A DNA stretch of 58,060 bases, the filler included, from Dugesia japonica (taxonomy: Eukaryota): assembly GCA_001938525.1 (NCBI GenBank). It is 5 parts of 5 records of this genome, joined end to end, with 100 filler letters (N's around TTAATTAATTAA, not from the genome) between each part and the next. Parts side by side here need not be neighbours in the genome. Positions count along the whole stretch, not along the records: positions 10,842 to 30,036 come from MQRL01606696.1; 4 more parts are not named here. One strand, written 5' to 3'. The notes beneath the pieces were generated by a model. That model saw nothing but the letters and a program-made list of their open reading frames with translations, was not told the origin of the DNA and ran no database searches. Positions 12,937 to 38,781 of the stretch are shown here, in pieces; the stretch's first letter is position 1; the number at the start of each line of letters is the position of its first letter. The position numbers and the translations under genes were made by a program.

Positions 12937-15900
12937 TTACATATGTACTAATCTTAAATGCCACATTTCACATGTTTCACAATAATATTTATTTCCATGT
13001 GGCCAAGTTTTTGCTCCATTATCTTCTATAATTCTTTTATCGTCATAACCCATTAATGCTATCTTTTTTTGTTCTACTATTTTAATTTCATGTAAATTTG
13101 ATCTTAATGAAAAATTATTTCCATAAATTATTTGTTTAGGATTATTTAATACTTCATCAAAATCTTTCATCAACATTTTATTATTTTTCTTTACACCTTT
13201 ATTTCTTGAATCAAATCTTGGTATATTGTCTTTATCAAAATAACTATAACCATAAGATTTTGCTTTTACAAAATCACCTTGAATTATTTCAGAATTAGGC
13301 ATTTCATCTTTCATCTGAAATAAATCATTTCCCAATAAACTATCCAACTTTATTAAATTATCTCTACCTTTTATCTCAACAAAGATACAATCAGTATCTG
13401 AATAATGAATTTTATAATTATCATTTCCAATTAATGGATCCATTTGTTCAAATATAAAATTATACATTACTTGTTTTGCATGTTCAAGAATTGTGAAACC
13501 TATATATGGAAATTTGTTATATCTTAATTTACCTTTTGTCATGAGCATTGCTGCTACATTAGTTTCATTAAAATCATTTATTGTAAAGATTTTACTTGAT
13601 TTAAAATTTATTTTAGATGCAAACGTTTGATATGCTTTGTCATTATCTACAATTTCTATGCTACACCTATTTCTAATATTTTCAAGTGTTTTCCATAGAA
13701 AGCATTTAACATTAATTTATAAATGTAATCACCAAAGACATCACTATTTCTTTTAGCTTCTTTTCTTAAACCTATTAATTTGAGAACATGATTTTTAAAC
13801 CATGGAGATGTTCTCATTGAAATTTTCTTGTGAATTTTTTTTAGTTTCATTCCACGTTTTAAATATAAATCTAATGTACTTCCTACAACTAGATAATTTT
13901 TCTTATCAAATTGATTAAGTGTAAGTTTAACATTATTCACTCCAATTTTCTTATTAAAACTTTTTTGGTAATTACTTATCATGTCTCGTGTAATATTTAT
14001 TCTTTCAGGTGCTAATGGAAAATATTTTGTTTTGTCATGTATTTCTCTTGGATAATCTAAATCAACTTCATAAATAAAATTAATGTTATCAGTTGAAATT
14101 TCATATTCTAGCTCGCTGCACTCGCTCATTTCACCTGTTGGTAATGTTCTAGTCATACAACTTGCATATAAAGAATTTTCATCAATATATTTTATAAATG
14201 TATCATCTAATAAATTTTCAAGATATTCATCTGGAATAAATTCATGTGTATTCATCATTTTTATTAAATCTTCAAATTGTGCTTTATTTAGTTGTCTTGT
14301 ATCTGGATCTTTATTTTTGTTATGTGCAAATACTTGTCTTTCTCCTAAAACTCCAGAATATCCACCTCTAATTCCTTCTTCAACTAATAAGAAAATATCA
14401 TAAGTATTTGGTTTCGCATATTTTAGTTTACATTAGCATTTAACATTCCTGTTTCCCATGCATAACCTGGTGCTGAATATGAATATGATGCATCTAATTT
14501 TAAAATATTGTTTAAACATGAATCTCTAAAGTTTTCTAAGAAATCTGCTAAAATTAAAACATCTAANTTCATATAGTGTAACATGTAACACCACATATTA
14601 TCAAAATTATAAAAGTCTTCTAAAAATATTTTATAGTCTTCATCAGATATTTCTTTTTGTGAAAGTGTATTAAAGAAATCTTGTTTTACTGGTATTCTGT
14701 TAGATTTTAATAATTCTTCAACTTGTGTGATATTATTACCTTTTACATATTCATATGGAAAACTTATTTTCTTAGGTCTTAAATTAAATAATTTTAAAAT
14801 TGGATAATTATTTGATTGTGTTAATAATGTTCCCATTACTTCTACTGATGTAAATGGAAGTAATCTTGCAGAATCTAAAAATTTAATATTTCCAAATTCA
14901 AATGAAATATAATTATCTGAAGAATGTGGAATTATTTTTTGAACTGATGATGAAAACTTTGTTAATAATTCTCTAAAGAATAAATGATTGTCATAACCTG
15001 ATGCATTATGGAAATAAAATGGTATAAATAAATTTTTAACAGAAAGATAATTTAAATTACAATTATTACATGACCATCCTCGAAATTCTCCAGTGAAATG
15101 ATTATGGTCTTTAATTGGAGTTCCATATATTTCATTTTCACAATATCTACATTTTGTGCCTTCGGACAATTCTGGAACTTCACCAATAACTTGTTTTATT
15201 AATTTATTTTCTTTAATGTTTTGCAATTCATCATTAACTTCTTCTAAAAACTCAAAGAAGTCTTCATAAATGTATTCACCTGAAAATTCATAATAATAAC
15301 TTAGGAATAAATCTTGATAATCACTTTTGAGATAAATCCCTAATAATGCTTTTTGTTTTTTATCTGAATTTGTGTAGGCTTCAAAATCTCCAATAAGAAT
15401 AAATGGTATTTTATTTTTCTGATAATATTTCTTAAAAGAATAATAATCTTCATATGGAAAAATAATATTATTTGGTTTGTGTTTAATACAAAATTCTTGA
15501 TGTTTCTTTAAAACTTCTTCATCTGAATAACAGTTCATACATCGTATGCATGGATAATTTGAGTTTCTATTTTCTGATGTAAAAAATACAGTTAGATCTC
15601 TACATAAAATATAATGATCTTTATACGCTAACAAATTACATTTATTACTCTCTGGATCTGGTTTTATTGTGTAATGTGAAATGTGTAGTGGTTCAAGTTT
15701 TTTATTAACATTTACACCAAACACATTTATTTCTAAATTATTTTTTATTAATTAATTTTTATTTCATCTACATTCATAGGAAATTTAAAACCACTATATT
15801 TTAATTCTGTTAAATGTGGAATATAATTATCTACACGTTTTGGATGATCAACTATATACTTATGTGCTAAAATTGAATTTAGAAAACATTTGTCATCTTT

Positions 15901-16728
15901 ATTTTCTATGTTAATTACTCCTTGTTTTTTAAATGGTAATTAGAATATGTTGCACCAGCTAATGATTGATATTTAGAAAGATCTAATTTATAATCAATTA
16001 TGTGTGACATACTCCATCCTGAGCCTTCTCTATCTTCATCTTCAATATATCTTTGTAACTCATTAAATATTTCATTAACAACATTTTCAATTTCAGTTAG
16101 AACTGTAAATCTTTTAGTTATAGAATATGATGTACAATCTCTTTCAGCATTTTCATTATTTATTTCTTTTGTATATCTACATTTAACTGACATACTTATA
16201 AGAATCTTTTTTCCATAATTAAAATACTTTGTAATAATTTCTTTAACTTCATTTTGAAATGTGTTAATTAATATCTCTAAATGGTTGTGTGAATATTTCA
16301 TCCACATTTAATTTCATTGTCACTTTGCTTTCCTTGAAATATTCAATTTCATAATTTTTATATTGTCTTAATAGATCTCTAATTTCTGGTTCATAATCAA
16401 TCGCTTCTTCACCTGGTAATTCATCATATAAAACTTTATTAACCATTTGTTTATGTTTCTCAGAATTATAATGTGCTCTTGCATGATTTTGTCTTTGAAA
16501 TCTTTTATTACAAATTTCACAAAATAATGGAACAATCTCTAGATTGCCATAACGTGTAGCATTTAAATGTTCTTGTAAACCATTTTCTGAATTAAATGTT
16601 TTATTACATCTTTCACATCGAAATGTCTCATTTGTTCTAAAACAAATTCTAGATCTAACATGTCCAATTAAACCGGCTTTATTTTTAAACACTTTATTAC
16701 AATTTTCACATCTTATTATTGGACTCAT
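12937..16728 (-). pseudogene. polB: Protein-primed family B DNA polymerase (pPolB) with N-terminal C2H2 fingers and endonuclease-VII-like insert, frameshifted
   Basis: Fragments contain three C2H2 fingers, EGSGW, DFEA (Exo I), DHNHFTGEFRG..CNNCN, FHNASGYD (Exo II), FLDS, FPYEY, DENSLY (motif A), KLMLNAFYGK (motif B) and YSDTD (motif C). Confidence 0.93.
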
Positions 16729-16879
16729 TTTCTATAGTATAAATTTAATCACACCTACTAAAAAAGTGGGTGCCGCAAATAAAACGTTTTTTTCAATCCT
16801 TTTTTTATTTTTATATTATTTGGTATTTCCTCTTAAATAAAAATGCGCGGGTATTTTATGGCGCAAAATCGATATTTAA

Positions 16880-17165
16880 AATTTGACATTTTTTACATCT
16901 CATTTTTTACATCTAAAATTTTACATCATAAATTTTACATCATAAATTTTACATCTCAAATTTTACATCACAAATTTTACATCTCATTTTTTACATCTCA
17001 AATTTTACATCATAAATTTTACATCACAAATTTTTGCATCAGAAATTTTACATCATAAATTTTACATCAGAAATTTTACATTTCACATTACAAATTTCAC
17101 AAAAAAATTTTACATCACACATTACAAATTTCTCATTACAAATTTTTCAAAAAAAATTTTACATA
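16880..17165. repeat. Subterminal tandem array of ~15-bp AAATTTTACATC(A/T)CA units in the Polinton end
   Basis: Direct reading. Confidence 0.85.
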
Positions 17166-17376
17166 AAAAATGAAGGGTACCCCCTTGGAAGTAAATCGTA
17201 TTATTACCATTACTTATATTATATTATACAATTATATTATATTATATATTAAAATTAGATGACGATAAGAATAAGAACTAACAACTACATGTTACATGAT
17301 TGGATTATTTTCATAATCAATTAATTTGCACACATTAATTTGGAAGTATTATAATCATTTTAAATTGAAATATCAG

Positions 17377-17520
17377 GATGTTAAAACATGTTGATTATGT
17401 GAATAAAAAATCCGATGAGTTAGAAAATACTTTTGTTGATAATGAGAATAAAAATAAAATATCCAACTCAACTGGAAAAAATTGTATTTATTCCATTGAA
17501 ATCGATGACTGTGAAACAAG
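17377..17520 (+). CDS. Possible isolated host exon
   Basis: TATCAG/...AAG/GTAAAT boundaries with an open frame (MLKHVDYVNKK...CET); no recognisable motif. Confidence 0.3.
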
Positions 17521-17924
17521 GTAAATGTATTTTATTTGAATTTATTAAAGTATGATAATTTGAAATAAATGAAATCAATATATATCAAAGTATTATTAGT
17601 AAAACATGATTATGTACAATAAATAGTTTATTCACACATAAATAATATAATTCTAAAAATTGAATTAATGTTTGTTAAAAATTTCTACACTATTAAAACT
17701 ATTGTGCTGTTAAAATAATTTTGAAATAATTTAAATAATTCTTATCGAAAATATTAATAGTGTATCGATATAATAATGTCTTATTCCAGCATATTTTGAC
17801 CTTGTTGTAGTGAATGTCAAAGAATCTACTGTAAACGGTGTTGATAGTTTTAAATAAATCTGCCAGCAAACTAAAATGAAGCGTGAATAGTAAAGAGTGA
17901 AAGTTTAATTACGCTAAATTTTTG

Positions 17925-18932
17925 AGACTGCCATGGTGAGCAGCTAGGTTCTATTACTCCGATTTTTACCAATTTGGCTGTTTCCTTATTTGCAAATTCT
18001 TTTTTCTCTACTGTCATGGCATATGGTTTCTGTTTGCATGGTGTTTCGTCTGTTAATGGAATTGTATGCATTTTCGCGGTGCACATACCCAGTTCCTCAT
18101 CTGTCCATGCAAAAATGTCTCGAAATTCCTCTAGTAATTGCAGTATTGCTTGTTTCTGATCCTCCGTTAAAGTCTCCGTCTCTACTTTAAATGTTCTGTC
18201 GATTTCTGGTTCAGTGGCTACTTCGTCTATCACGTCAGGTTCTGGTTCGATGGGTGTTAATGTACCCATTCTGGAATTTGGTTTGATTTTGATGTCTTTT
18301 TCCGTGAAATTAATCAGACTAACTGGTATTTCTCCACTTTTGTTGACCGTAGTTATTCCGCCTGCTGTGGGCAACTCATACTGCCGCGCAAATCCGTCAT
18401 ATGGTTCAAAATAACAATCTCCTTCGTAGGCACTTTTGGTACTGACTACGCAGTATACCTGGCATCTACTGGGCACCAAAATTTCTTCTGTGGTAAATAC
18501 TTCGTGATCCTTCACATGGGTATAGCCTTCCAATGATTGTAGCCTTAATGTGGAGAAATTCAGTATACCGTTTTTCATCAGGATGGGAAGAATATCCGTT
18601 CCTAGGATACACTGTCCCATCATTTCTACAATGATCATATTGTGTTTAATTTTGTTATCCTGATATTCAACTTCACAGGCCGATTCTCCAAAAATTTTGA
18701 GGCTGCTACTATTTGCCACATCTGCTGTAGTGTTAGTGGGTAATATATTTTTATATTCTGTTATCGCAATTTCATCTATTGACAGCAACGATATGGTGGC
18801 TCCGGTGTCCACTAGTGCTATTATGGNNNNNNNNNNNNNNNNNNNNNTAATGGTTAATACTGGTCCCCCATTGAGGCTTGCACATACTACATCTGAAGGG
18901 TTATGACTGTAGTTTGATTGTGTTTTGCTTTT
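17925..18932 (-). pseudogene. pol: Pol N-terminus: aspartic protease (PR2), dUTPase-like region, start of RT; truncated
   Basis: ALVDTGATISLL..ILGTD; 'EILVPSRCQV...IPVSLINFTEKDIKIKPNSRMG'; 'IFAWTDEELG..HTIPL..PCKQKPY..GVIEPSCSPWQS', then abrupt transition to AT-rich host DNA. Confidence 0.9.
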
Positions 18933-18942
18933 ACTAGAGTAA
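18933..18942. repeat. Left inversion-boundary repeat ACTAGAGTAA
   Basis: Exact reverse complement of TTACTCTAGT at 21985-21994; lies where the coding strand switches. Confidence 0.75.
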
Positions 18943-21398
18943 TTCGGATTGTGCGAGATCAGTTTAATAAAATCGAGAACGGGTGGACGCGTGGACCTCG
19001 CCGAAACTCATGGCATGCATTAACCACCACAATACTTTTGTTGTTCTTAATGATGGGCAGAAGCGAAGCTATCCTAGCATATGATTGAGATGGGATGCAA
19101 GTTTGGAAAGAGGTATTCTCATTAGTAGATACAGAAGAATGCCCAGATGCAAACCCAGAGAANNNNNNNNNNNNNNNNNNNNNNNNNNNNNNNNNNNNNN
19201 NNNNNNNNNNNNATTCTATTTATCATTTATATCAAGAATCCGATTATTATAAGGCCCAAGTACGCGAGTGCTCAGTAACGGTGAGACCGTTCATATTTCA
19301 TTGTGGTTATTATAGTTATACGTTAATAATCGACCCCAGAACAGTGAGACACCCTGTACATCTAACCGGACAACAATGCGATGAAGGATTCTCCACAGGG
19401 AAAATTACCATGAAACATGGGACTCAAGTTGTTGCCAAGAAAGGACATGTAATCGACCAACCTATAGAAGCAGCAGGAAGCATATCCACTCATAAAGGCC
19501 ATGGTACCTACACCATACGAGGGAAGGTATGGACGTATGCGGTAGCAATAGAAACCTATACCGTGGAACTCAAGGAATATGAAGCGTTTTTCGATGCTCA
19601 AGATTTGACGATTAAGGGAAGATCGTACTGCAAGGCAGCCGATGGATCATGTAATACAGGCACATCAACATTGACATACAAAGTGGAACACCAGGACTGT
19701 AAGTTGGCACATCTAAAGGAAGCCGTGTTTAATGAATACCAAGGACAACGCGCTATAACACCTATTGACCAAACCCCAAAAGAGGGTAACCTAAAGGAGA
19801 GAATAGATATTATCAAGGAAACAATAAGGACAGGTCCGAAGTCGTATGACCAGCAATGGCATACAACGCCGACGGTGCTAATGTCTTCGGAACAGGACGA
19901 GACTATCCGTCTAATTAAAGGAAATTCAATGTCAAAGTGTGGGCAAATAGTATTCAAAACAAACTATAAAGGAATATTCGTGTCTGAACATCGAATAAGA
20001 ATGGCGAAAGCCGCAGTAATGTCCCAAGACATCAAATTACACCTTTACACCAACAATAAACTGGACAATATACTTCGCCAAATGCAAGATACCATCAGAC
20101 GAATGTACCACGACCTCATTCAAAATGACTGCACGTTAAACAAGGAAATATTAAAGACAAAATTAGCAATGACAGTTACGAACCCTGACAGTGTCACTCC
20201 ATTACTCCCATTGAAAAAGGGACAATTGGGTCGAGTGGTAGGAGAAGTGATGTACTTATATAAATGCAAGGCCATTGATGCCGAATTCTCGTCAAATCCG
20301 AAACACTGCTACAATGAGATAGAAATTATTCACAACAACGAGAAAAGATACGTACAACCAATTACTCGAATAATATCGCCGTTGGGCTATAGGTCGAATA
20401 TCATAAATTGCTCTAATGTATTTGGACCACAATACGTAATGATGGATGGGTCATGGATAAGATTCCCTCAACGAATGGCAGTAGGAGTCGAACCACGAAA
20501 ATTTTCAATGTTACAACTAAACGGGGGCATGCAATTCACCCCAATCGATATAAATAAAGGAGGGATCTATAGCAGAGAAGATTTAGAAAAAGCAAGGGAA
20601 TATATGTTGTTCCCAGTCCGAAGAATGCAAATTCTCTCAAATATAGTACAATTAACCAGTGGGACCAACATCGACGGACGAGTAAATTATGACGCATTAC
20701 TATCAGCAGACCACTTTCAAAAAGCCACCGAAAATGTCATGAGGAAAATGTGGGGAAGATTCATAATATTTGGCCAAGCAATGGCAGGGTTGTTGGGAGT
20801 TATGTTGATAATTTCAGTAGCACGAGTAGTGATCACGCAATTATTCGCATGTTTCGATATATATAAAAGAGAGAAAAAGGTGAATTGGAAAATGGTAACA
20901 GGAATATTTCCGTTTTTAGCCAAAACTATNNNNNNNNNNNNNNNNNNNNNNNNNATCGACAGAGTAAAGAGATTCATTCGGAAGCTCGGACAAATAAGAG
21001 GATCAGACAAGGAAGTTATAATGCAACTCAGACTATTATGTGAGGAAATGAGCAACGCTACGAAGAAGATATCATATTTCAACCAATTCAAAGAAAGGTT
21101 TAAAAACAAGGACGAAAGTAGCAGCAACAGCGATGATGATAGAGGAGAAAACAGTGGAATACCACATGTACCCAGTTATAAAACCGCTATGGAATATGAG
21201 GCAGAGTTCAAAAGGCAGCAATACGAAAAGATCAGCAAGATGCAACGACTAAAGAACGCGTTAAAATTCGGAGGAGGAGAAAGCACGCCAGCACCAGCAC
21301 AAATGTACTATAACGCGTATCCACAACACGGTTGGCAACCCATGAACCAAACACCACAACCAGTATGGGCATTAGGCCCTATGTACAACAATCCGTAA
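18933..21398 (+). pseudogene. env: Envelope glycoprotein, chuvirus/herpes-gB-like class III fusogen, with internal signal sequence and TM anchor
   Basis: In-frame upstream of the 767-aa ORF is ALTTTILLLFLMMGRSEA-ILAYD*(C) (signal plus YDC start, with TGA at the Cys position). Conserved Cys pattern: CSV..FHCG, C..G.C, NDC..K..L, GEVMYLYKC..CYNE..YVQPITRI..INCS..PQY...W. TM segment FIIFGQAMAGLLGVMLIISVARVVI. Confidence 0.85.
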
Positions 21399-21974
21399 AT
21401 AAGCTCACTACAAGCCCCGAATCTGACGTTGATAACTGAAAACAGTGTGTCGACTATAGACAGAAGGGTAATCGAACAAAACCTACGCACTCCGCATAAT
21501 CAGATAACTGAGGATGATAAATTAGAAACACAAACGGTATGTATGATGATGCCCCAGAGAGCGAAATTACTACAAAAAAGGATAAAAATCGACGGAAGAT
21601 GGGTAATAGCTATTATTGATACAGGGGCAAGTACGACGTTAGTTCATAAAAGGATATTAGAAGATTATCGCCTACTTAGAATAACAATTAATAAAGGAGT
21701 TATTATCACGGCCTCTGGANNNNNNNNNNNNNNNNNNNNNNNNGCAATATGTGCAATAGAAAGCGATGGAACTCGATTCTGGCATAAACTGCAGATAATG
21801 AACGAATTAGCATTCGATTGCCTATTAGGGTTGGACCTCTTACCACGCCTTTGTCCGGATGGAATATTGAATTTGAGCAAATTAACCACACGAGAAAATT
21901 ATAATCAGGAGTATGCACCGATAGGTTTTCGGAAAACTCGAATAATAACACAACCGAAACGACAATTCTTTTAA
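21399..21974 (+). pseudogene. Second retropepsin-like aspartic protease (PR1), in frame with env after a single stop
   Basis: IAIIDTGASTTLV...DCLLGLD; ORF 21429 is in the same frame as 19095. Confidence 0.85.
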
Positions 21975-21984
21975 CACAATTCTT

Positions 21985-21994
21985 TTACTCTAGT
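21985..21994. repeat. Right inversion-boundary repeat TTACTCTAGT
   Basis: Reverse complement of 18933-18942; adjacent 12-bp tandem duplication ACAATTCTTTTA. Confidence 0.75.
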
Positions 21995-22046
21995 TTATAT
22001 GAGAAGGTTGAGGTTTAGGACAGATGGCCTCAATAAACTTCGTCCA

Positions 22047-25000
22047 TCACCCCTGTTGCTTTATTAATGACACTATTTTATTCTGCATTAGGTTCACTAT
22101 TGGTAACTTACTGAGGATGAAGTTTTTTGACGGCTTGCATCGGGCATTTGATAGATGCGTTTGATTAATCAGATGTGCTATAGATACTACTATCCTTCCT
22201 TTTGTTGGCTGATCCTGTAATAACTCGTCCATGACTCCTTCTAAATTATCTCGAGTACCGTGACTAGTGCCTTTGGTGGCAGGAAATCTCTTAATAGCTG
22301 CTTCTATCTCTTTTACTAGTGGTCTGAGACTATCTGACAGTTGGAATTTTCCAATCCATATTTTTAATTCTGAATATAACATTAGCAATAATTGTCGTAT
22401 TACTACTTCGGTTGGCATATCATCATCTGTTGAAGTTTCGTGATATCTTTCTTGTGATAACGTTGCTAATCGCTTAGTTTGATGGCTTATTGACGTTGTT
22501 AATCGTTTTTGTTTCAATGCCTCCTCCTCCTCAGGATTTCCTGGAGGTTTCGTCCTTGGTCGACCTCTATTACGAGGTTCGGTAATCGTTTCGGCATCCA
22601 CTCTGGTACGTACCGGTTTTGGTGGTACCTCTTCCTCTTCTGTTTCTATTGGATTCTCCATCTCTAGGGGGTGGTTTGTATCTAGTAAATCATCCATTAC
22701 CGAGTATGGTAATTCCTTTGCTATTTTACTTAATATTGGTGACAAAGGTTGGTCTTCCAATATGTCATCCTCGTCTAAGTCGACCTTGCTAGGGTCATAT
22801 TTTTTGTTTCGTATTGGTCTTTGTTTCTTCAATTTTTCTAATTGGGGGGGAATATTTTGTAATTTGTAACTCGTTTCCGTCTTCCGCTGACTCATCTGCT
22901 GATGGTGATCCGAATATCTCACGCTCCCAATCTTGGCTTGTTCGTGGAGTCTCTTTTGTTTCTCTGGACGTTTCTGTACTTCCTGATTGATCTGTGGTAG
23001 GCCTTAATATCTGACTAGCCGTTAGTTGTGTACGGAGTTTATGTGCTTTTAGCATACTTGAAGTTTCCCCCATTATCGGTCTGATTTTATCCGCTGCTTT
23101 ATAAGGATCTGCATCTTTTCTCGTGAGAGTACCTCCTAATTCAGGAAAAATCCACAACGTATTAAGTTTAACTAAGTCTATTTTCATTAGTCCAATTGTT
23201 GTGGTATCTTCCCCCACTCCGCTTTCATCCACGAGTCTGTATGGTGGTTTAAATGGTAACTTGTCTCGTAGGTGTTTTACCGTATTATATACCGGTATTT
23301 TAATCGGGATTTTGTCTCCTTCAGGATCTATTATTCGAAATTTAACTTCCAATGGTGTGGCTTGCCCTATCTCCGCTTTCCGCCATTTGACCAGAATTTT
23401 ACTAAACTGAATGGGATCCCATAAATGCGCTGCTTTGATGGCTAGAATTAATTGTCGCCATTTTCTGAGATCTTCTACTGCCAGATCTTGTTGTAAGGCT
23501 ATATTGCATCGTCGTATGATTTCTGGTTTTACTAATTTGTCCCATACTAATAATTCGAACAATTTTGGCAAATTGTCTTCTGGCTACTCGTCCCTGACCG
23601 GGGTGTTGGTCAGAGCCGCTACCATCTCTACTCGTTGTTTATTTTGTTCTTGTTTGGGAAGTTTGGCTCTAGCGAATACTAATGGATGTATCTCTTCTAT
23701 ATAATATTCCACCAACTCTCTAGCTTCCTGTTTCCATTTTTCCTCCGAAACTCGTGGTCGCCGTCCCTTCTCATTCTTTGCAGTTACATAGATTTTTAGT
23801 TTAGTGCCTGGCCAAACCCCCATGTATTTTACCGGCAACCTCATTTGATCTGGTTCTATTACGTGGTTGTAGTAGAGTACTATATCGTCTTCTTGAACTG
23901 GTGTTGGTGCTCCAGTTTCCTCCTCGTTGAGGATACGTTGTTGATTCATAAATTTTACAATCCACTTGCGCAACTTAGCCCATGGTTCATTCATTTGGAT
24001 CTGCCATTGAATTTCACTTGCATCTGGGAATTTTATTATTACGTTGACGGTTTTGTTGGCTATCATACGAACTGCTTTATTTAATATCGCATCCATTATG
24101 TCCTCCGGCATTTGACTTATAGCTCGTAGTTGATTTAGCTTTAGAACTAATTGGATGACTTTGTCATGTCTTAATAGTTCCAAGTTTTCTTCCAATGTTA
24201 AGAGTATTTTCATTATTACTCGCGCCAGACTTCCCCATGTTTTACTGTCTTCCCATAACTCAATATTTATTTCCATTGTTCTGTCGTCGATTACTTCGAA
24301 TAACTGCCCCCCGTTGATATCTTGTTCATACAATCTCTCCAGTTGTTGTACTACTTCCCCCATAGGTTTTACTGGACCTGGGATGTAGTCCTCGGGTTTC
24401 TGTATTTGGAGAAGTGTATTTTCACCGGGTCTTAACCCGACGTCCAGTAAATGTTGTTTCCCCTCGAACTTTATGGGAAATCTCAAGTGATTGCTGGTAA
24501 TCACATAGCCTTTCTGTTGATCAGCTATATCCAGTGATTCTATAATTTCCTGTTTTCTCCTGCTGACGTGCTATTGAAATGTGGTATATGCATGACAGCC
24601 AATTCTGGTTCCCTCCTCGATTTCTTGTTTGGAGTCAGATATTCTATCGTGATATTCAATCTTCTCCCTGAGCACTTGCTTTCACTGCCCCAATGTATGG
24701 CTTGATTACGGATTCCCACCTGGCGCGATCTTCTCTTGCTAATTCAGTTAGCTTTGTCAGATCCATTAATAAATTTAATGCTTTCCAAAATGTTGTCCTA
24801 GGTATCCTTTCCTGGAAATAACAGAAATCCGAAATTATCTTCGCGATCCGCTCCGTCTGAGGAGAACTAAAAGGACCAGCGAATTCAGGTTTAAAGGGTA
24901 ACAATCGAGGTTGACCCTTATTCTCTGAGATTCCCCCCTCCTGCTCTTCTTCATCTGAAGTTAGGTCTGGGGTGTTAGGGTCATTATCCCGAACCATGTT

Positions 25001-27460
25001 TATCTGAGCTTTGTGTTCTCCATAAGTGTTTATGAGTCGTTCATTTTCTACCGGTAATATTTCTTGTAGATATAAGCTCATCATATTAAATATGAGTTGA
25101 TCGGTGTCTGGCATTTTCGGTATCGGAAGGTCTACCGTCATTTTACGTGATGTTAGTTTGATTTCTGTGATCTCTCCTGGCTTGATATCATGGAGGAAGA
25201 TGTGATCCGCTTTTTCAGCTAACAGGATCGTTGTTGCTCCCGCCTGCATTTTATAGGATTTGATCGATTTTGGCCATAACCATTTTTTATAGGTTTCAAA
25301 ATGTGTCGGATAGTTAATCCTTCCAAGGTTATCATATCTTCCTTTTTTATGTGCCCTTCCTTGTTGAGCAGACTAACTCTGATGGAGTATTCGGATATGG
25401 TGGAGGTATTTTGTACTTCTTCTTCGTATAAATTTTTCTCCTTCCACCATTGGGCACGGGCCCACAAGCTAAGTTGTCCATAGGTTGCCAAATCTCGTAG
25501 GTTGATCATCATCTTCCAATATACTTTGATATTCACCACCGGGCGTGTTTCGCGTGTTACTCTCATCAAATCATTGATAGCGTGAAATGTGGCGGATTCC
25601 TCTGTTATTGGTTTGGTATAGTTCATCCGAATATCGCGTATGGTTGGCGTCCCTTCTGGAAACACAACTGCCTTTGTAGTACTTATTGGTAGATTATCAA
25701 TATTCTGTAGTTTCTGATTTTCTTTTATTTGTTCCTTCATACCTGACAACACTTCAGTTACGTATATTTCTGTTATCTCTTCTATCCTTTCTTCAAGGTC
25801 TGGCGATGGAACTGTTCGAGTTTCTTCCTCCACATCTAGTTCACATATCTCTCCAGGTTTTGAGTGACATTGGAATATATGTTTGTCCTCGTCATCTGTT
25901 TCTACCAATTTGCCATTTATGAACAGGGGTACCATATTTAATCCTTGTTCTCGCCACTTATCGGTAACGGCATCCATTAAATCCATCATGGTTATTCCTT
26001 GTGGTTTTAATCGGCTATATTTAGTCAATTCTTGTTCATTTTTACCTATATTCAAATATAATTGATAGTTCCGAATTTTGGTAGTTGCTAATATTTCTTC
26101 GGCATATTTGCCTAATCATGAGCCATTGGTTTTCGATTTCTTCTGGTATCTCTAGTCCATCGTATATGTCGTAAATTCTATTCATTATCATCCAATAAGT
26201 TTTTCGGGGTAAGTTCTCCTTTTCCATTTGTACCCGATTAACCATTTCTTCCACCTTGCGCATTGCTACTACCTCTCTTGACGGCATCTGTCGCATTCTT
26301 ATCATGTTGCATTTATCTTCTCTTCTCTCTAATCGTTGTCTGAGGAAGTCATTACGCGTCATTAGCAACTGTTTCCTTTCCTCCTTTGTCAGTTTATCCT
26401 TCTTTCCGAGGACCGTGGAAAGTATTTTGATTTTAATTGGCTCTACCCCTTGTTTATATAGATATTCCATTTCTCCCATGATTTCTAAAGCTGATCTACC
26501 AGTTTTCGTTACCCATACGTCATAATCGATACCTGGGTGTTTGTCCAATATTACTAGTTCGATTTCCTCTCCTGGTTTTATTCCGAAATTGTAGATATGT
26601 CTTTTTCTGGCATTAAAATCCACTATTGCACTTGGAGTACATACGTATTTACTCATCACACAGGGATAACCTGCTTGATTGAGTGCCGCTTCTAGATCTT
26701 CTACCATTAGCCCCGTGAGTGTCAATTTCATATTACCTTCTGGGTTATACAACCATACTTGGTAATCCGATAAGCCCATATTGGATATTACCCAATCGTA
26801 ATGTACTGGTAACCATTCTGTCCAATCACTTTCTTCAGTGGTTATTAATTTTATAACTTCCAATAGCTCCACCAATCGATTTGTCAGTATCATGGAGTTT
26901 CTGGGCGGCTACCAATATCTCATCAATTCGGGCTAATGATAACCTTGATGCCTCGATTTGTCCCAATTCTAGGTGGTCCATTAGCCTTACTGTCCCCAAC
27001 CTTTTCCGCATGTATGTTTGTGACTGGAGGGGCACAATTTCTTTTAAGAATGTTTGCTCGAGATTATGATATAACTCGCCTGTTTCTATTTCTTGAATTA
27101 CTATTTGGGGTCTGAACACTAATCCCCAGTTAATTAACTTGATTATGGTTATTTCATAAGGTCTTGCCCCATAATAGATTAAGTTCTTATCGCCTGGGGT
27201 AATATTGATTCCGATATTGCCGATTTGTATTCTATGTCTATTCCACTTCGTATTCCATTATTGCTGGTCATTAAATGGTAGTGCGTCGAAGATTGGGTTT
27301 ACTGCCATACCCTTAATGCCGTTCACCTCTCCCCGTTTTATTTCGTTGATTGCTTCCTTTAAGTGTCGCACCGTCATTCCTTTTAATGCGAGCTTTAGTC
27401 GCTTTGGAGCTACCTCTGGGTTGTTATGCCATACATATTGAATTTCGAACTCATAGTCTT
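22047..27460 (-). pseudogene. Gag-extension polyprotein: tandem ubiquitin-like plus helical modules, then a low-complexity/AT-hook-like region and a helical domain
   Basis: Abutting or overlapping same-strand ORFs joined by single stops or frameshifts. A recurrent [H/L][I/L]xxxGx[K/R]PGE-x-x-x-[L/I] motif appears every ~600-750 bp. RGRPR is in the 22047-22922 ORF. Confidence 0.7.
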
Positions 27461-29250
27461 CTAGTTGGGTTTCTTGATACAGCTCGGTAATATAGTCCGA
27501 TATCGTTTTCTGCCAATTAGCCCTTACCTTGGCGTGTACTTGAGGGTGCTGATATAGTCGGAGCAACTGGTTCATCACCCGTCTTCTTCCGGTGGTTNNN
27601 NNNNNNNNNNNNNNNNNNNNNNNNNNNNNNNNNNNNNNNNNNNNNNNTGTTTTGTAGATGATCTCTTCAGTCCAGTCAAATTCTGGTGACGTAATCAATA
27701 TTCGCTTTCGAGTATCTTCCATCTCGGTGACTTCCGTTGTTTCGTCATATTGGTTATAGATTTGCCTGTGTGTCCTGATCATATTACACTGATTCTTGTG
27801 TGGTTCGTTTAATAAGTTCCTTTTGGCTAGTCTCTCCTGCTGTACCTGCAGATCTTGGTTTTGCCACTTAAGCCAATCATTTTCCTGTTTCACCTTGTGG
27901 TACACATTGTCAAAAGTATTTTGATGTACTAAATTAATTTGTCCCTTATTTTGATTTACTCGTTGCCTTAATCTCTCGTTTTCCTCCATTAGATTATCTA
28001 GCTTCGCATTCTGATTCCGATTATAATTGGTTTGATTTCCGGCTTGACATTCTTTTGCCATATGTCCTCTTCTATTACATTTATAACATACNNNNNNNNN
28101 CTTCAAAAAACACGTTTCCACATTGTGGTTGGTCTTCTTGCAATAGGTACAGAATCGATTGTTGTTACTATTATTGCCTCTACTTCTACAGTTGCGGGAT
28201 ATGTGTCCTCTTCTTCCACACGTATTGCATTGGATGTCTCGATTATTTTGCCAATTATTCCGAGGTGCATTAAATCACCCATTATTTACTCTAGGATAGT
28301 TAGGTCTATCATTCCGGTTGTTTCGTTCCTGTCCTGGGGTCAGGGTTTTCATCATTGATTGTGTATTGGGTATAAAATCTGATATTCGCGGTGTGGTTTC
28401 CTCAGTTTGTCCTTCCCCTTTGAATATCCGTTCGGATGGTCTGTCTGCCACGATTAGCAATGTAGCCAGCGCATCCTGCAGTGTTACTGGTTTACTCAAT
28501 TTTACCATCAGCTTAGCATTCTCATCGCGTAATCCATTTAAGAATATGGCCAATACTTGACTGTCTTCCAATTTGTCTCCTAACACTAATTTGCCGCGAC
28601 TCTTAAGTTCCATCATGTACGCCTGTGGCGTTTCGCCTTTTTGTTGTTTTCGATTAGTGAATTGTTCGAAATCTTGACCGGTTAGTTTCAAATTTTGGAA
28701 ATTGTCAATTAGTATTTTTACCACCTCTTCCCATTTTTCGGGGATGGACTCCATGCCTTTAGTGTGATCCCAAAATACAGTTTTGGCCACTCCTGTTAAG
28801 TAAGCTGGTAACCGCTTTCTTTTTGTTTCCTCATCCCATCCACAGGTTTTGGCGTACATTTCGTAATTTTGAATAAATTCGTCCAATTTTTCAGGTATTC
28901 CACCAAAATATTCGCCATCGAATTTTATTTTCCACTCTGGTCGATGGTTTTCAGTTTTGGTTGTCATGTTGCTATCTTTTGCTGTGTTTGTTTCTATTTT
29001 CGGGTTTTGACTTGTTATCGTGTGGGTTTCTGTTTCTGACTCGTTTGTCGGTATTACTAGTGCGTTGGTGCTTCCCTGGTTATTGTCAGTTACTTCTATG
29101 ATTTCTTGTTCCTCTGATGTATAACTTAATCCGCTTGATCGATTACTATTCTCTGGAGTTTTATTAGATGTGGTTTTTTGGTTGGTTTGAGCTGATGGTT
29201 TCTAGTGTTTTGGTTTTAGATAGCGCGGTGGCTTTGTCGAATTCCGATTT
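27258..29250 (-). pseudogene. gag: Gag: capsid domain plus three CCHC zinc knuckles
   Basis: FGG..EKLDEFI..YE..W....RLPAYLTGVA..W...KQQKGETPQAY..L...FLNGL. In frame past one TGA (28275): CNTCGRRGHISRNC, CTYCKKTNHNVETC, CYKCNRRGHMAKEC. Confidence 0.9.
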
Positions 29251-30036
29251 TTTTAGTAAACAAATATTCTCGTCCGGGTCTAAATAAAGAGATGTCTTTT
29301 TTAGTTTCCTTGAAGACTTTTGTCGGGTGAGTTGGGTTTCTTTTAGAACTGAGCTTGGGGTAGATATCCCGGATGTGTTAGACCTTGTAAGTGGCTTCCT
29401 GTTTTCTGAGTCGGAATCTATCTTGTCAGAGTCCGGCTAGTTGGTTTCTTGTTGTACTTCGGTTTTGTTTTCGGGTTACTTGTAGCTTAGGTTTCTAGAA
29501 TAAAAATTTCTCCTTATTGTCTTTTCTGAGGAGGCAATCACTCCTTTTCCAGATTTTAAACTTACTTTATTATCATGCTGCTCAACACTTGTCATCATAG
29601 CCCCGCAACCATCTTCCTTTGATTTAATTACGTATACATTTAATCTTCCTTTAATTTTATTTTAATTTTCCTTAAATAAGTCTTCCTTTAATCTTCTTTT
29701 TATGCTTCCTTAATTTCTTCCTAATTAATGCCAGGCTATTTCTTCCTAAATGTGGGAGTACCCATTTTTCTGTAGTATAGGCGAACTCTTCTGGNNNNNN
29801 NNNNNNNNNNNNNTTTAATATGCCGGGGTAACAGTGCACACTTTTAATAATTCTTCCTGGGGGAGTACCGAGAGTTTTCTGAGGGATCAGCGGTCCCATT
29901 TGGAGTACCCTTTTCGTGTAGGCGAACGCTTCCGGCTTCCTTTAATTCTTCCTCTAATCAGGTTCCTTTAGTGTGCTTAACTACGTGGCCTTCCTTTAAC
30001 ATACTGGTTAATGTGCTTAGGACTTCACGTATCTTC

Positions 30037-30136
30037 NNNNNNNNNNNNNNNNNNNNNNNNNNNNNNNNNNNNNNNNNNNNTTAATTAATTAANNNNNNNN
30101 NNNNNNNNNNNNNNNNNNNNNNNNNNNNNNNNNNNN
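30037..30136. other. Artificial contig-joining spacer
   Basis: 44N-TTAATTAATTAA-44N. Confidence 0.95.
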
Positions 30137-33100
30137 AATTAAATATTTTGGAGCTATTACAAAGAAGGAAAATAGTTTCATTTTTATGGAATTCATGCCT
30201 GGAGTAAGTTAGCTGGAAAGTATTTTAATTTATAGTGTTTTTGTTTAATTAAATTATTTTGGTTATCGAGTAATTTGACTAGAAAAATTAGATTTTTTTA
30301 ATTATACGGATTGCTGTTAGCTTACTACTAGCTTATCTTAGAATAACGGAAATTTGACATCGCTAACAACAATTCTTATTTTTGTTTTAATTGGTGTATT
30401 TCTATAATTTTTCGTTTACATTCTTTATTATTTGTTTCAATGAGATGAAATTATTTATTTTTTGTTTAAATTAAAAGGTATTATGTTTAAATAAAGTGAA
30501 ATTGTTTTATTTTTGTTTAAATTAAGTAAAATTAACGATTTTAAAGTAAAGGTTTCTAAAGCAATATTAACATTAGCAGCGCTGGACAATATTAACATTA
30601 AATATTCTCCGAGCAATATTAACATAAAAGGTTCCGCAGGCAATATTAACATTAGTTGCTCAGGTGTCATACTATTAGATGTTCGATGGCTCACACTATT
30701 TATTTGCTTCAAGTTTCATACTATTGAATGTAAAATGGCTCATACTATTCGTTGCTCCAGGGCTCATACTAAAAGATTTCTATGGGTTCACATTCTTGCC
30801 TACACATGATATTAGATAATCTCTGACTCATACTATTAAATGCTCCGGCATTAGATGATCCTTGGCTCATTAATATTAACTGCTCATCCGATGAAAATCT
30901 TTGTTAATATTTATATGTTTAAGTAAAATTATTCTATCTTAGTAAAATTAATGAAATCAGTATATTATTTGCATTCTAAGTAAACTGATTAGCAATAATA
31001 TTATTAAAATTATTTTCATACATTGCTTCAATAACAGTTTTGTTTGTATTCCATACCGTTACATTACCTCATCCGACATGTTCAGTTCGACGGAGCGAAT
31101 CCATCAAGGTCCGTTAGCATCTAATCGAGACCTTTCAAAATTTTATTGTGAAATTATTTGTGTATTATTTCATTGTGAAATTATTTACAAAGAAATTTAG
31201 TAATTTTTTATTTGGAAATATTTTATTTAATTTGACTAATTCAGGGATCTTTACGATCCCGGATTTCTAAAAGTACACCAATTGCATCTAACAAAGTTCT
31301 TCAATACACAAATCAAATTCTTGAAGGTCTTCAATTTTTGCACGGTATTGAAATCATTCACAGAGATATCAAACGTTGGTTTTTATAATAATTATTTTAC
31401 AATTTGTAAATTGCGATAATTAGCTGATCATATTTTATTGGATAATGATGAAAATGTAAAATTAACTGATTTTGGTTTGGGAATATCATTAAATAACACT
31501 GACGTCCTCAAAACACAAGCAGATTCATTTTGTGGGACACCATATTATATGGCTCCAGAAATCATCAATGGGGAAAAGTATTCATATGGCGTTGATATTT
31601 GGTCATTAGGAGTTACTCTTATAGAAATGCTTACAGGTTTGAATTCCATGATTATTTGACATTTTTTACGCAATGATTACTTATGAATTGTTTGCTTGGA
31701 TTGACTGACTTATTTAGTAACCAAAAAGATATTTAATACTTGATTGGGTTGTGTTAGATGAGTTTGAAGAACTCATCGAGGAATTGAATTCACAAATAGC
31801 TTCCATAAAATATTTATTCACTAAACAAAACTATGATTATCAATTTGTTTTTTACAAACAAATTTATATTCGAAACGAAAAATAAAAAATATCAGACTTA
31901 GGAAAAATATTTCATTAATTCAGTTTATTTAAAATTTTATTAAATAATGTAAAATTTAAAAATACAATAAAAAATATATTTTATTGAAAATCAGAAATTC
32001 GATAATTTTAAAAATTACAATAATATTATAAAAATTATAAATTATAAAATTTTATTAAACGGTTAATTTTAAAGTTTATTTTACAAATTATTTTAGTAAT
32101 TCCATTAAAAGATTTCACAAATTTGATTTCAATAAATTCCGTTTCAAAATACAAAAAATTTAAATCTTCTTTTAAAAACTATCTTACACCCCCCTTTTAA
32201 GAATTTTTTTGATCTTCTCTACGTTTCTTTAGTTTCTATCTGCCAAGATGTAACTTCTGTCGTGAACGTTTTTCTTGATCTTATAGGTATCTTCTAATCG
32301 ACATTGTTTCATGTTTCAAATTTCACTTTGGTTAGTATATCTTTGTGCACTCTTTGAGTATCTGATTCGTACCATTTTTCTCTGCTTATTCTCTTCCCAA
32401 AATACACAGGACTTTTCCTGCCGGTCTTCTGTTTTGTAGCATTCAAAGTAAATTCTTTCTCCGGAAATAAATCCGCCCAATCTGAGTTTGATTTTCTGTA
32501 AGTGTCGCATTTATCATTACTCGCATAGTTCTAAACTGCCTCACGATTGTGTAACGATGATTTGGACTCGAAAACTTGAGGGTAATTCCATGTTCAACCG
32601 CAAAATTTTTCATTGTTTTACACTCAAATGCTCTTCTTCAATCAACTCTTATTTCTCTCGGACACCCGAACTTTAATATCCATTTCTCCATTATTACTTT
32701 CCCTATAAATTCTTGCCATTGCTATCAAAGCTACATATTTACTTCATTGATCTATTATACCGAGAACCTATCTTTTTCGACCTCTTCTATGATGCAATGG
32801 TCCATACACACATATAAATAACAGTTCATACATTTCAGCTGGCTGCGTCTTTGTTTCTTCCATCGTTTTTGTTGTCAGCACTTTGGTTTTCTGGCATGTT
32901 ATACAACTTCGCACAACCTCTTTTAATTTTCTCCTCAACTTTTTTGCGTTATATTTATGCTTCGTATACGCTGCTACTTTTCTGCTCCAGCATGACATAA
33001 TAGATGATGGATCCTCATTAAAACCTCTTCTATTTTGTGATCAGATATCCACGTTCCTTCATAATTTTTTCCAAAATTGCCTTGCTTCTCTCGAATATCT

Positions 33101-35916
33101 ACTGTATTTAGCATCCTTGTTTTTAATTTTCCACTCTTGGGATCTTTATGTGACATTAGGCATTGTGCACATGTATCGTATTTACTCGTTGACAACATAT
33201 CCGCATTTGTATTGAAGCGATCCTTTTCTATATTCCAATTTTATATCTAAACTACTCAAATAATTAATCCAGGTTTGAAACTGTGATGTGATCGGTTTCT
33301 TGGTATTTAGCGTATAAGTGATAGCTTTATGGTCTGTCCTGAGGATAAATTATCTTCCATATAAGTAATGTTTGAAATTAATAAAAAAGCAGTCAATTGC
33401 GAGTAATTCATTTCGCATATTCTTCTTCAGGAACTGTTTTTCAGTAAATTCTTATTACAAACTTTGACATAGAGACAGATCTTAAATAAATCTGAGTAAA
33501 ATCAATTTTCATTGGATATTTATTATAATATCAAACTAAATGAACATTTTCTCGGTTAATTGTTGCAAAACATTATGATATGCGGAAATATGGAAAATAA
33601 AATAACATTAACTTTGATCTTTGCTTGTAAATAATTTTTTGAAATAAAAAAAATCATTTGTTGTTAAAAACGAATTTATTTATTGACAGATCAATGGTTT
33701 TTTTAAAAAATAATTTTTTAGTTTTTAAACAATTTTAAAAAAGGATTTATCATAATGCTTTGCAGCAATTAACCGAGGAAATTTTCATTTAATGTTATTT
33801 TACAAATAAAATCCAATGAAAATCGATTTTACTCAGATTTATTTAAAATCTGTCTTCATGTCAAAGTTCGTAATAAAAATTTACTGAAAACAGTTCCTGA
33901 AGAAGTCTATACTGAAATATGGAAAATAAAAGAACTTTGATTTTTTTATTTAAGATGATTAATCAAATAATTTCCATTTTTATGTTATGAATTTCAATTT
34001 ATATATGATGACTTAGAGTTTTATGTGTTGACTTTGAATTTTAATGTTATTCAGAGGAGTTTCTAATATTAAGTACTTATTTATCTATTTATTTCATCGG
34101 GGGTAAAGATTGTCGAATTATAATCATGCTTTTCTTACTCAACCTAAAATTCGCTATCCTAAAGATATTTTGATGTTTGTATTTGAACTACTTTTTATTT
34201 TTTCAAAACTTGGATAAAGGTCGTCAATTATAAGGTAAAGCAACCCTTAAAAGTACTTATTTTTCTATTTATTTCATTAGGGTTAATGGGATTTTATTCT
34301 TGATAAGCGAAAAGTTCTCGATCTAAATTTGAATTACTTTTTATTTTTATAATTATCAATTTTGAAATAATATTTTTTGACAAGTCTTACCGTATATATT
34401 CTCTATCAGCGTATTTAAATTTGGATGAAAATTATAAAAACTAATTTTTTATTTGTGATTGTTAGGAACTCTCAGAAATTTGACATTGTTTTTTCAATTT
34501 TTCTCAGTCAAAATTAAGTTCGACGATTTTAGGTGGTGCTTTTCTTGATCAGCAAAAAATCGAATCATGTAAGTTTCGATGCGATTTAAAAATAAAAAAT
34601 TTTCAAAGTTTGTCGGGTTTATACACAATTCTTCAGCCCCACGCAGGATTTGGCGATTTTTAACTAGGTCTATCATAATCGGCGTAAAATTCTCTATTTA
34701 AAAAGAAGAGTTTATAATTAAATTTGAGAAAAAAATATTTTGCGAAAAAATTTTTCTAGCTAGAAATATTCTCGAAGTCATTCTGAATCGATTGATGTTT
34801 AAAAAATGACGTTTAAATTTGGGATTTTATTTATTTTTAAAAATATGTATTATTTAAATCAAATAAGATTTTCCAAAGAATTTTCGGTCAAATTCTTACA
34901 TTGTGTGCAAATATTTGACTGAAATTAACCAAATAGACCAGAACTACAATCCCGAGGAAATTCCTTACCAAATTGCCTAAAAATTACTCAAACTGACCGT
35001 GTTGAGAAAATAATTGACAAAAATTGCCCAAATCTGACCACCCTGACGAATTAATTGACCAAGAATGCCCAAATCTGACCACCCTGACGAATTAATTGAC
35101 CAAGAATGCCCAAATCTGACCACCCTGACGAATTAATTGACCAAGAATGCCCAAAACATACCGGTCCGAGGAAATTCCTTATCAAGGTTGCCTAAAAATT
35201 ACCGAAACTGACCCAGTTGAGAAAATAATTGACCAAGAATGCCTAAAACATACCTGTCCGAGGAAATTCCTTACCAAGTATGCCCAAAACATACCTGTTC
35301 GAGGAAATTCCTTACAGGATTGTCTAAAAATTACCAAAACTGACCCAGTTGAGAAAGTAATTGACCAAGAATGCCCAAAACATACCAGTCCGGCTAAATA
35401 TTTGACCGAATCGACCAAACACCACTCAAAATTATCCAGATTCAATCTCACAAATCGCTTGAAAAGCCTTAAAAGTACTAAAAATTCCAAATCATTTAAT
35501 GCCCTACATAATAATCGCGACGATGAAATTAACATAACTTAATCCAATTACATAAAAAATTATTGCCGCTTAAAAAGCTGAGAAAATTGCAAATCACTTA
35601 TGTACTAATTTTTACGCCAGTGGGGTGGGGGTGAGTGATCTAGTGCTGCACTATCTACCTATTTTTTAATGTATATTTTAGCATGATCTTTGTTCTTTTA
35701 TTTGTTTAAAATTTTCATTTAGGAAAGCCTCCATATTTAGAATTCGTGCCTGCGGCGGTACAGTTTAAAATTGGAACAACTAAAACAATTCCATACCAGT
35801 TACCAGAATCCTCCTCAAAGGAAATGAAAGACTTTATCGATCAAATGTTGATTCCGGAACCTTATAAACGTCCAAACGCTCTGGATTTAATTAAATTTAT
35901 GAAGGATATCGAATAA
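30137..35916 (+). CDS. Ser/Thr protein kinase, MAP3K/STE11-like, 3' exons 30137-30203, 31245-31374, 31424-31636, 35723-35916
   Basis: Spliced translation: IFMEFMPG/GSL...YTNQILEGLQFLH..IIHRDIKP/DHILL..VKLTDFG..GTPYYMAPE..DIWSLGVTLIEMLTG/KPPY..AVQFKIG...KRPNA; GT-AG introns keep frame. Confidence 0.9.
30560..30890. repeat. Intronic minisatellite-like arrays (CAATATTAACAT x4, then TCATACTATT x~7) with variable spacers
   Basis: Direct reading; period ~24-27 bp. Confidence 0.7.
32185..33420 (-). mobile_element. Ty3/gypsy RNase H-integrase fragment with PPT and start of 3' LTR, in kinase intron
   Basis: ELLA..FKHYLYGR.FILRTDHKA; HHLLCHAG..CITCQ; AAAAGGGGGG-TGTAAG at ~32198-32183. Confidence 0.8.
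33423..33905. repeat. ~155-bp diverged inverted repeat with ~170-bp spacer (foldback/MITE-like)
   Basis: CTTCTTCAGGAACTGTTTT...CATTATGATA (33423-33580) is the reverse complement of TATCATAATG...AAAACAGTTCCTGAAGAAG (33748-33905). Confidence 0.85.
34930..35410. repeat. Tandem repeat (41-bp AATTGACCAAGAATGCCCAAATCTGACCACCCTGACGAATT unit and variants)
   Basis: Direct reading; explains spurious ORFs 35147-35542 and 35182-35535. Confidence 0.88.
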
Positions 35917-38681: not shown

Positions 38682-38781
38682 NNNNNNNNNNNNNNNNNNN
38701 NNNNNNNNNNNNNNNNNNNNNNNNNTTAATTAATTAANNNNNNNNNNNNNNNNNNNNNNNNNNNNNNNNNNNNNNNNNNNN
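38682..38781. other. Artificial contig-joining spacer
   Basis: 44N-TTAATTAATTAA-44N. Confidence 0.95.

Follow-up and report, generated by a model that had tools for sequence, protein, structure and literature searches.

A decayed giant gypsy element of Dugesia japonica, probably of Burro-like GAG-ENV-POL type, with a predicted class III glycoprotein in a probably inverted block

The window analysed here is a stretch of 58,060 nucleotides, filler included, of the planarian Dugesia japonica (NCBI GenBank assembly GCA_001938525.1), made of five parts of five records, of which positions 10,842 to 30,036 come from MQRL01606696.1. It is gappy, with 40 N runs or single Ns, and its GC content is mostly 0.20–0.30, a composition compatible with the accounts of planarian genomes as very AT-rich and holding many gypsy and Maverick elements in the accessible parts of PMC11410931 and bioRxiv 10.64898/2025.12.11.693146. 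A 12-kb island of GC about 0.40 at 17.9–30.0 kb, with GC of 0.16–0.22 below 17800, holds a long open frame (env) that an earlier note, made from the sequence, had taken for a chuvirus/gB-type class III fusion glycoprotein in a gypsy context. Here, we report that this locus is very probably a decayed and truncated giant Ty3/gypsy copy of the Burro-like GAG-ENV-POL type, in which the block carrying env has been inverted.

Layout of the element and its probably inverted block

From the start of gag to the start of the reverse transcriptase (RT) the element extends over 11.5 kb, and both of its ends are missing. Its parts are given below from leader to RT, where P numbers denote relatives from the protein searches.

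29440–30036, minus: 5' leader of the element, with GC of ~0.38–0.44 as in the element; ended by the gap 30037–30136
28275–29436, minus: gag, capsid part, in two frame pieces (Retrotrans_gag E 1.3e-4, below cut-off)
28047–28229, minus: three CCHC zinc knuckles of the nucleocapsid (zf-CCHC E 6.5e-9, 3 motifs)
22795–27557, minus: accessory region of ~1,600 codons in broken pieces, with diverged repeats of 80–100 residues seen from internal matches
21993–22400, minus: candidate Bcl-2-like domain with BH1- and BH2-like motifs; stop at 22047–22049
21985–21994, no strand: right arm of an inverted repeat of 10 nt that borders the inverted block on its right
18943–21984, plus: inverted block of signal, env and first protease, recognised from AT skew, composition and collinear relatives
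19020–19076, plus: internal signal-peptide-like hydrophobic stretch (hydropathy), with no start codon upstream of it
19086–19088, plus: in-frame stop where the mature glycoprotein begins, the codon directly after A-Y-D
19089–20753, plus: predicted class III (gB/chuvirus-type) ectodomain, with an N run at 19163–19212 and one near-invariant cysteine absent
20754–20864, plus: membrane-proximal and transmembrane stretch (peak Kyte-Doolittle 2.36)
20865–21398, plus: cytoplasmic tail or linker, ended by a stop where relatives run on into protease
21567–21848, plus: first retropepsin-type protease, DTG present (gag-asp_proteas E 1.7e-7)
18933–18942, no strand: left arm of the 10-nt inverted repeat, where opposite-strand tblastn matches end (18933/18935)
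18588–18827, minus: second retropepsin-type protease, DTG present (RVP E 0.0018), matching P0002 from residue 1147
18267–18446, minus: dUTPase-like domain (PF00692 E 0.0019, below cut-off)
17925–18266, minus: gypsy-type RT start, the remaining pol being absent from the locus; tblastn matches with P0002, P0006, P0010 and P0014 end at 17925

The gypsy context claimed earlier is supported: gag, the RT start and the RNase H and integrase domains of the relatives are gypsy-type. The gag piece matches the Gag of P0020 (E 9e-14) and of P0009 (E 7e-11), and the gypsy-type pol order of protease, RT, RNase H and integrase, seen in P0002, P0006, P0014 and P0017, is represented in the window by the proteases and the RT start only. 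Those N runs that fall within coding pieces of the element (18827–28100) keep the reading frame where this can be judged and therefore seem to stand for real lengths, with hidden breaks possible. Between the RT break and the AT-rich DNA lie ~130 nt of GC 0.32–0.38 (17800–17925), perhaps what an internal deletion has left of the 3' end of the element.

The env frame runs on the strand opposite to the gag, accessory and pol parts, a feature that the earlier note had overlooked. In the window env is still positioned between gag and pol, though inverted, and the inverted block carries the parts that, in the relatives (collinear across gag, env and pol), link the Bcl-2-like domain to the later protease. 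The AT skew flips at 18965 and 21965, and opposite-strand tblastn matches stop at 18933 (P0020, plus) and 18935 (P0025, minus), independently of the repeat. No inverted match between the junction zones is longer than the 10-nt repeat (18933–18942 and 21985–21994), whose right arm is overlapped by a duplication of 14-nt period at 21962–21989. On both sides of the junctions GC is 0.38–0.41 and GC at third codon positions (GC3) 0.33–0.40, against a GC3 of 0.12 in the neighbouring Polinton-like element. These features of the sequence suggest that a block of ~3.0 kb was inverted through repair at microhomology.

The glycoprotein, its fold and its relatives

The env frame matched Pfam PF24664, the Monjiviricetes fusion glycoprotein, with E 5.6e-76 and 256 bits against a cut-off of 27. 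When a profile of 110 aligned sequences was compared to PDB, 33 of the 35 matches at E≤10 were herpesvirus gB (best E 0.002), while phmmer with the single glycoprotein (G) frame against PDB sequences returned nothing useful (one match, E 1.7); the gB likeness is visible only via the alignment profile and the fold. An AlphaFold2 model of env residues 1–551, built from 104 sequences, reached a predicted local distance difference test score (pLDDT) of 87.4 and a predicted template-modelling score of 0.73, with a central helix of 48 residues (317–364). Foldseek with this model ranked herpes gB first in PDB (E 5.6e-13, template-modelling score, TM, about 0.4) and chuvirus-like G first among the predicted viral structures of BFVD (E 1e-34, TM 0.59–0.70, 16–21% identity), and VIA-align with herpes simplex virus 1 gB gave Z 9.2 and a root mean square deviation of 7.9 over 408 residues. 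As modelled, the env frame is a class III fusion glycoprotein of gB/chuvirus type: the profile and structure comparisons proposed in the earlier note did find similarity to gB and to chuvirus G, and its identification stands on the Pfam family, the gB profile matches and the fold together. With the G of Jingchuvirales/Monjiviricetes (PF24664) and herpes gB the window env shares the class III fold, 12 of 14 cysteines and the order of signal, ectodomain and anchor, at identities of 16–21% to viral G and 10–15% to gB. Unlike these, it lies inside a retroelement polyprotein and falls in a tree group of its own.

The gene itself is broken. The earlier note had described an intact frame of 767 codons with a signal peptide, an 'AYD(C)' N-terminus and conserved cysteine spacing, better preserved than its neighbours and either open by chance or perhaps retained. 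From stop to stop the frame indeed spans 769 codons on the plus strand (19089–21398, ending with the stop 21396–21398), of which 27 are unreadable in two N runs, and the hydrophobic signal-like stretch was found; an intact gene is refuted by the stop after the signal, since the bracketed residue is not encoded and 19086–19088 separates signal from ectodomain. The first in-frame ATG (19050) lies inside the signal stretch, so that env is not a stand-alone gene. Cysteine spacing is conserved in part: the ectodomain has 12 cysteines, and of the 14 near-invariant columns of a 104-row alignment 12 are filled. Near residue 137 the window has a gap in a column that holds cysteine in 99 of 100 rows, and the second unfilled column falls upstream of the window's open frame. 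Signal and C-terminal membrane anchor are both present as judged by hydropathy; the long hydrophobic run at 20754–20864 agrees with the transmembrane helix noted before, the charged and then Pro/Gln-rich tail is there, and the second hydrophobic patch proved weak (best 13-residue mean 1.02) and enters an N run. With neither a full cysteine set nor an unbroken chain, this copy makes no functional envelope, although its descent from the fusogen family stands.

The length of the frame is no sign of retention. About 11 breaks were counted from the map of open reading frames (ORFs) in 11,151 coding bases of the element, and with 10–12 random breaks over these bases the longest open stretch reaches at least 2,310 nt with P 0.68–0.83, whereas one given stretch of 2,310 nt is free of breaks with P 0.08–0.13. 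Although env is the longest open frame of the element, its length, and with it the better preservation noted earlier, is within chance expectation.

The relatives show where such a glycoprotein belongs. HMMER against 1.84 billion proteins gave 994 matches at E≤0.001, and among the best 150 of these the top-ranked relatives (30–45% identity) are mostly long chains of 748–3,243 residues with an internal G. In a Pfam scan of 20 relatives from these 150, G, protease, RT, RNase H and integrase occurred in a single frame in P0002, P0006, P0014 and P0017, and a Gag or zinc knuckle lay upstream of G in P0007, P0011, P0017 and P0020. An internal hydrophobic stretch, 148–1,364 residues into the chain, stands just before mature G in all 13 relatives checked. 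From G to the protease motif there are 43–335 residues in 12 of 12 relatives measured, and the corresponding distance in the window is 231, in the same frame, with the stop 21396–21398 between. In the relatives env is thus an internal domain of one polyprotein that comprises Gag, accessory region, env, protease or proteases, RT, RNase H and integrase. A word-indexed protein search had given one match for G and none among longer proteins, weak evidence in view of the long relatives that the full HMMER search later found; the same kind of search with the accessory region of P0020 returned only P0020 itself. Past the integrase, P0002 (residues 2135–2855) and the C-termini of P0006 and P0014 carry extensions of ~600–1,150 residues free of Pfam matches, and that of P0002 holds a third protease motif at 2321.

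In a quickly built tree of the core of G, which used 60 of the 105 rows available (the window, 13 polyprotein rows and every second remaining row; midpoint root and no monophyly test), the window G fell into a group of 16 rows with all 13 polyprotein rows (Shimodaira–Hasegawa-like approximate likelihood ratio 95), apart from 44 mostly stand-alone, G-sized rows. The phylogeny suggested earlier accordingly places the window G among polyprotein envs and away from stand-alone chuvirus-like G. By this grouping the env has long been an internal domain in a lineage of retroelements and was not newly taken from a virus. That the mRNA of a chuvirus glycoprotein was captured recently, as a non-retroviral endogenous viral element in gypsy, is hardly credible: the Pfam family does come from Monjiviricetes and the best predicted-structure matches are chuvirus-like G (TM 0.59–0.70), but identity is 16–21% to viral proteins against 35–45% to polyprotein envs, the tree parts the window G from the 44 stand-alone rows, codon composition equals that of the element, and env runs on into protease.

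A Burro-like polyprotein and its competing explanations

The layout of the element resembles that of Burro. Planarian Burro is longer than 30 kb, with long terminal repeats (LTRs) and a single ORF of about 5,000 residues. In the accessible part of PMC6431247, Burro is described with ORFs of 4,873–5,140 residues, in which a Gag with two to three knuckles, Ubi2/SUMO-like and BCL2-like domains, an in-frame env between BCL2 and protease, and a dUTPase-like domain between protease and RT follow each other; one protease is named, the env matches mononegavirus fusion proteins and gypsy Env by HHpred, and decaying fragments are reported in a third species. With Burro/GYPSM1 the window shares a three-knuckle Gag, a Bcl-2-like domain followed by env between gag and pol, a dUTPase-like domain before RT and ~3,800 codons ahead of the RT core, which is compatible with an ORF of 4,900–5,100 residues. 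It differs in having several accessory repeats where the review has one motif, two proteases where the review has one, and an inverted env block, and in being a broken and truncated copy.

A similar order is known from the gB-type errantiviruses. In the accessible part of PMC13524379, gB-type env is reported in gypsy elements across animals, with the ectodomain between signal and transmembrane segment and a GAG-ENV-POL order in nematodes, bryozoans and flatworms (36, 10 and 9 elements, respectively). The window shares with these elements of Platyhelminthes, Nematoda and Bryozoa the gypsy type and a gB-type env between gag and pol, again with signal and transmembrane segment on either side of the ectodomain. 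The survey elements were chosen intact, whereas the window copy is decayed, with ~11 breaks and no LTR pair, and the length filters of the survey would presumably disfavour an accessory region of this size. In its main text 'Burro', 'Bcl' and 'polyprotein' each have 0 occurrences. The earlier note had named BEL/Pao elements (Tas, Anakin) beside some gypsy elements; the BEL/Pao elements are not the closest comparison, as the window groups with 13 polyprotein envs and has the layout of Burro and the GAG-ENV-POL errantiviruses. Tas is a BEL/Pao element with a gB-like glycoprotein. Such elements carry the same fusogen class on an LTR element; here gag, the RT start and the RNase H and integrase of the relatives are gypsy-type, and no Pao-type Pfam match was obtained in the window pieces or close relatives, the sole DUF5641 match being in the distant P0028.

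The domain beside env appears to be Bcl-2-like, from results that are weak singly and consistent together. Pfam Bcl-2 was matched at one common position in the piece from the window (E 0.064, its sole match), P0005 (0.00096), P0020 (0.055) and P0003 (0.2), and was not matched in P0012 or P0036. With a hidden Markov model of four relatives the window piece was the best six-frame match (E 0.001), and a five-row profile compared to PDB had Bcl-xL or Bcl-2 in all of the best 60 of 111 matches (best E 0.006). As a single sequence the piece had no match in PDB, nor did Atlas give a usable match when queried with the corresponding stretch of P0020. A BH2-like motif stands 56–86 residues ahead of mature G in 4 of 13 relatives. 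For the accessory repeats, whose internal matches range from E 1e-5 to 1e-3, a ubiquitin/SUMO-like identity is the leading guess and a lead only: UBX was matched with E 0.16, Atlas pointed to ubiquitin/PF11976 at 0.87–0.89 (under the 0.9 mark) and ubiquitin appeared in P0020 with E 0.031, while Pfam on nine repeat units gave no ubiquitin match. RpoH/Rpb5, which reached E 0.05, is the less likely identity, as the repeat unit opens strand–strand–helix.

Multiplied proteases may be a second mark of the family. A DTG motif follows G in 13 of 14 relatives examined, and two to four such motifs, compared to two proteases in the window, were found in 6 of 13; these family-level features may already be in print, and tandem or multiple proteases in LTR elements were not found in the searched literature, in which coverage of subscription papers was poor. 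Five relatives have a chain that reaches RT, and only P0002 has two proteases before it. In a rough protease tree of 21 domains, with four short ones left out and bootstrap not settled, proteases of the same element were sisters in P0011 (99/99), P0007 (97/90), P0004 (93/76) and the window (86/35), and not in P0002 or P0003. It is conceivable, though we would not presume it, that giant gypsy viruses with this env form a clade of their own, whose polyprotein has a flavivirus-like topology. In it the signal peptide would double as the tail anchor of the upstream Bcl-2-like domain, and the protease would have been duplicated in tandem several times independently (2–4 copies with intact DTG motifs), for a single-chain dimer or to share out the cleavage of a chain of 5,000 residues that spans the membrane. 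The spacing of 56–86 residues and the same-element protease pairs of P0011 and P0007 allow such a reading.

The working family would express one long polyprotein, from Gag with knuckles through the accessory region (ubiquitin-like repeats, Bcl-2-like), signal, ectodomain, anchor, protease or proteases and dUTPase-like domain to RT, RNase H and integrase. Signal, anchor and stop-transfer steps are established in membrane-protein biogenesis. By analogy, the internal signal would send the env ectodomain into the endoplasmic reticulum, where signal peptidase would free it from the upstream part; the anchor would stop transfer and leave Pol in the cytosol, joined to the env tail until retropepsin cleavage releases protease and Pol. 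Cellular Bcl-2 proteins are anchored in membranes by their tail, and the signal left on the upstream product could likewise anchor the Bcl-2-like domain. The env trimer would fuse membranes and let particles pass between cells, and a putative infectious ancestor may fairly be inferred. In the present copy the 3.0-kb block of env and first protease would have been inverted at the 10-nt repeat; most of pol is missing, and the frames have collected stops and shifts. None of the above is within reach of this copy, because gag translation ends well before env, the block is antisense to the element, no start precedes the signal and a stop follows it.

Several points weigh against a Burro-like element with an inverted env block. 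The Pfam matches of Gag, Bcl-2, dUTPase and second protease are each below the curated cut-off, and folding of the repeat unit was unsuccessful (pLDDT 39.7, two strands and one helix only). Identity between the two proteases of the window is only 29%, and the tree pairs them with weak support. No LTR or primer site was found at the element, and self-BLAST of the window revealed neither an LTR pair nor a second copy of the leader. The BIR, MATH, ankyrin and Smc domains of Burro1 were not matched in nine gag and accessory pieces (Pfam E≤0.1, the broken pieces lowering sensitivity), which is why the element is filed as Burro-like and not as Burro. Likeness to Burro and the errantiviruses rests on published descriptions and not on named sequences, and the processing steps are inferred. 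The 10-nt inverted match does speak for an inversion, being reached by 3.4% of random zone pairs of 211 nt, 0.7% at 100 nt and 0.2% at 60 nt, but the zones compared here were picked after the repeat had been seen. Finally, the older gypsy relic at 0.8–4 kb is similar in composition, and composition cannot separate related families.

This last point, the weak protease pair and the lack of a frame crossing either junction as the sequence stands would fit a plus-strand block that is a piece of a second, related element, inserted or recombined antisense, with env and first protease foreign to gag and pol. We regard this as improbable, since the block is exactly the piece missing between Bcl-2-like domain and second protease, Bcl-2-like domains precede mature G by 56–86 residues in the relatives noted above, env and at least two proteases occur in single chains, and the block is flanked by one inverted repeat at both ends and by no LTR or target duplication. 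An artefact of assembly or amplification, with a genomic copy that is collinear but decayed, is about as improbable. Inverted chimeras at short complementary stretches do occur in amplified DNA, and the draft assembly is gappy, with the 40 N runs or single Ns mentioned above; yet neither junction lies at an N run, two reciprocal junctions would be needed, the right junction carries a short duplication that resembles a scar of repair, and neither the stops nor the missing cysteine depend on orientation.

That the host retained or domesticated the inverted env, either as a gene in its own right or as a source of antisense or Piwi-interacting RNA, is more improbable still, and the retention entertained in the earlier note finds no footing: a stop directly follows the signal, no start precedes it, a near-invariant cysteine is missing, the block is inverted and the frame length is within chance. 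What speaks for it is that env is the longest open frame, that inversion would place it antisense to the element's promoter, and that a host benefit of Burro1 has been reported. In the accessible part of PMC13465017 this benefit is cited via a different domain, the BIR-containing region, which was not found here.

The preferred reading, a decayed Burro-like GAG-ENV-POL copy, makes the locus a fossil of a known design and leaves host biology unchanged. At the level of structure it confirms the class III gB/chuvirus type for the env of Burro-like elements, and it ties the Burro layout to the GAG-ENV-POL errantiviruses, a link absent from the main text of the 2026 survey (PMC13524379). The tandem proteases of the relatives, and their Bcl-2-like domain that ends in the signal of env, pose the question of how Gag, Env and Pol of a retroelement can all arise from a single chain that crosses the membrane.

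Neighbouring features of the window

Spacers of 100 nt (N44, a 12-nt all-frame stop linker and N44) lie at 10742–10841, 30037–30136, 38682–38781 and 48995–49094, and order and distance across them are uncertain. On the minus strand, 10790–16731 holds a decayed Polinton/Maverick-like element with protein-primed PolB (E 2.6e-12), endonuclease VII (4.2e-6), hexon-associated IIIa (0.0028) and C2H2 zinc fingers, and a GC3 of 0.12; a link of the gypsy element to it was ruled out by composition. A 14-nt tandem satellite (16872–17174) lies between the two.

Two further gypsy relics are present. The smaller one (780–4054, plus) has protease and integrase pieces between direct repeats at 780–989 and 3838–4054, 92–95% alike, which are probably LTRs. 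The other (32600–38680, minus) has protease, RT, RNase H and integrase pieces and is interrupted by an inverted-repeat element (33438–33890), a 41-nt array near 35.0–35.4 kb and a DDE_3 transposase piece (36548–37024). Its RT piece at 38205–38393 starts near the position where the RT of the env-bearing element stops and was considered as its continuation, but was rejected as it lies in a separate relic of GC 0.27 with its own protease and RT start upstream.

Pieces between 66-nt direct repeats at 42325–43202 (minus) appear to resemble an RT of non-LTR or Penelope type. A low-GC frame of 1,018 codons (43961–47017, plus) that follows directly on a 22-nt tandem array (43408–43979) is possibly a host exon; it has a hydrophobic stretch at its C-terminus and lacks a real Pfam match. 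Pieces of a piggyBac-like transposase (DDE_Tnp_1_7 E 2.3e-24) lie at 50512–51918 (plus).

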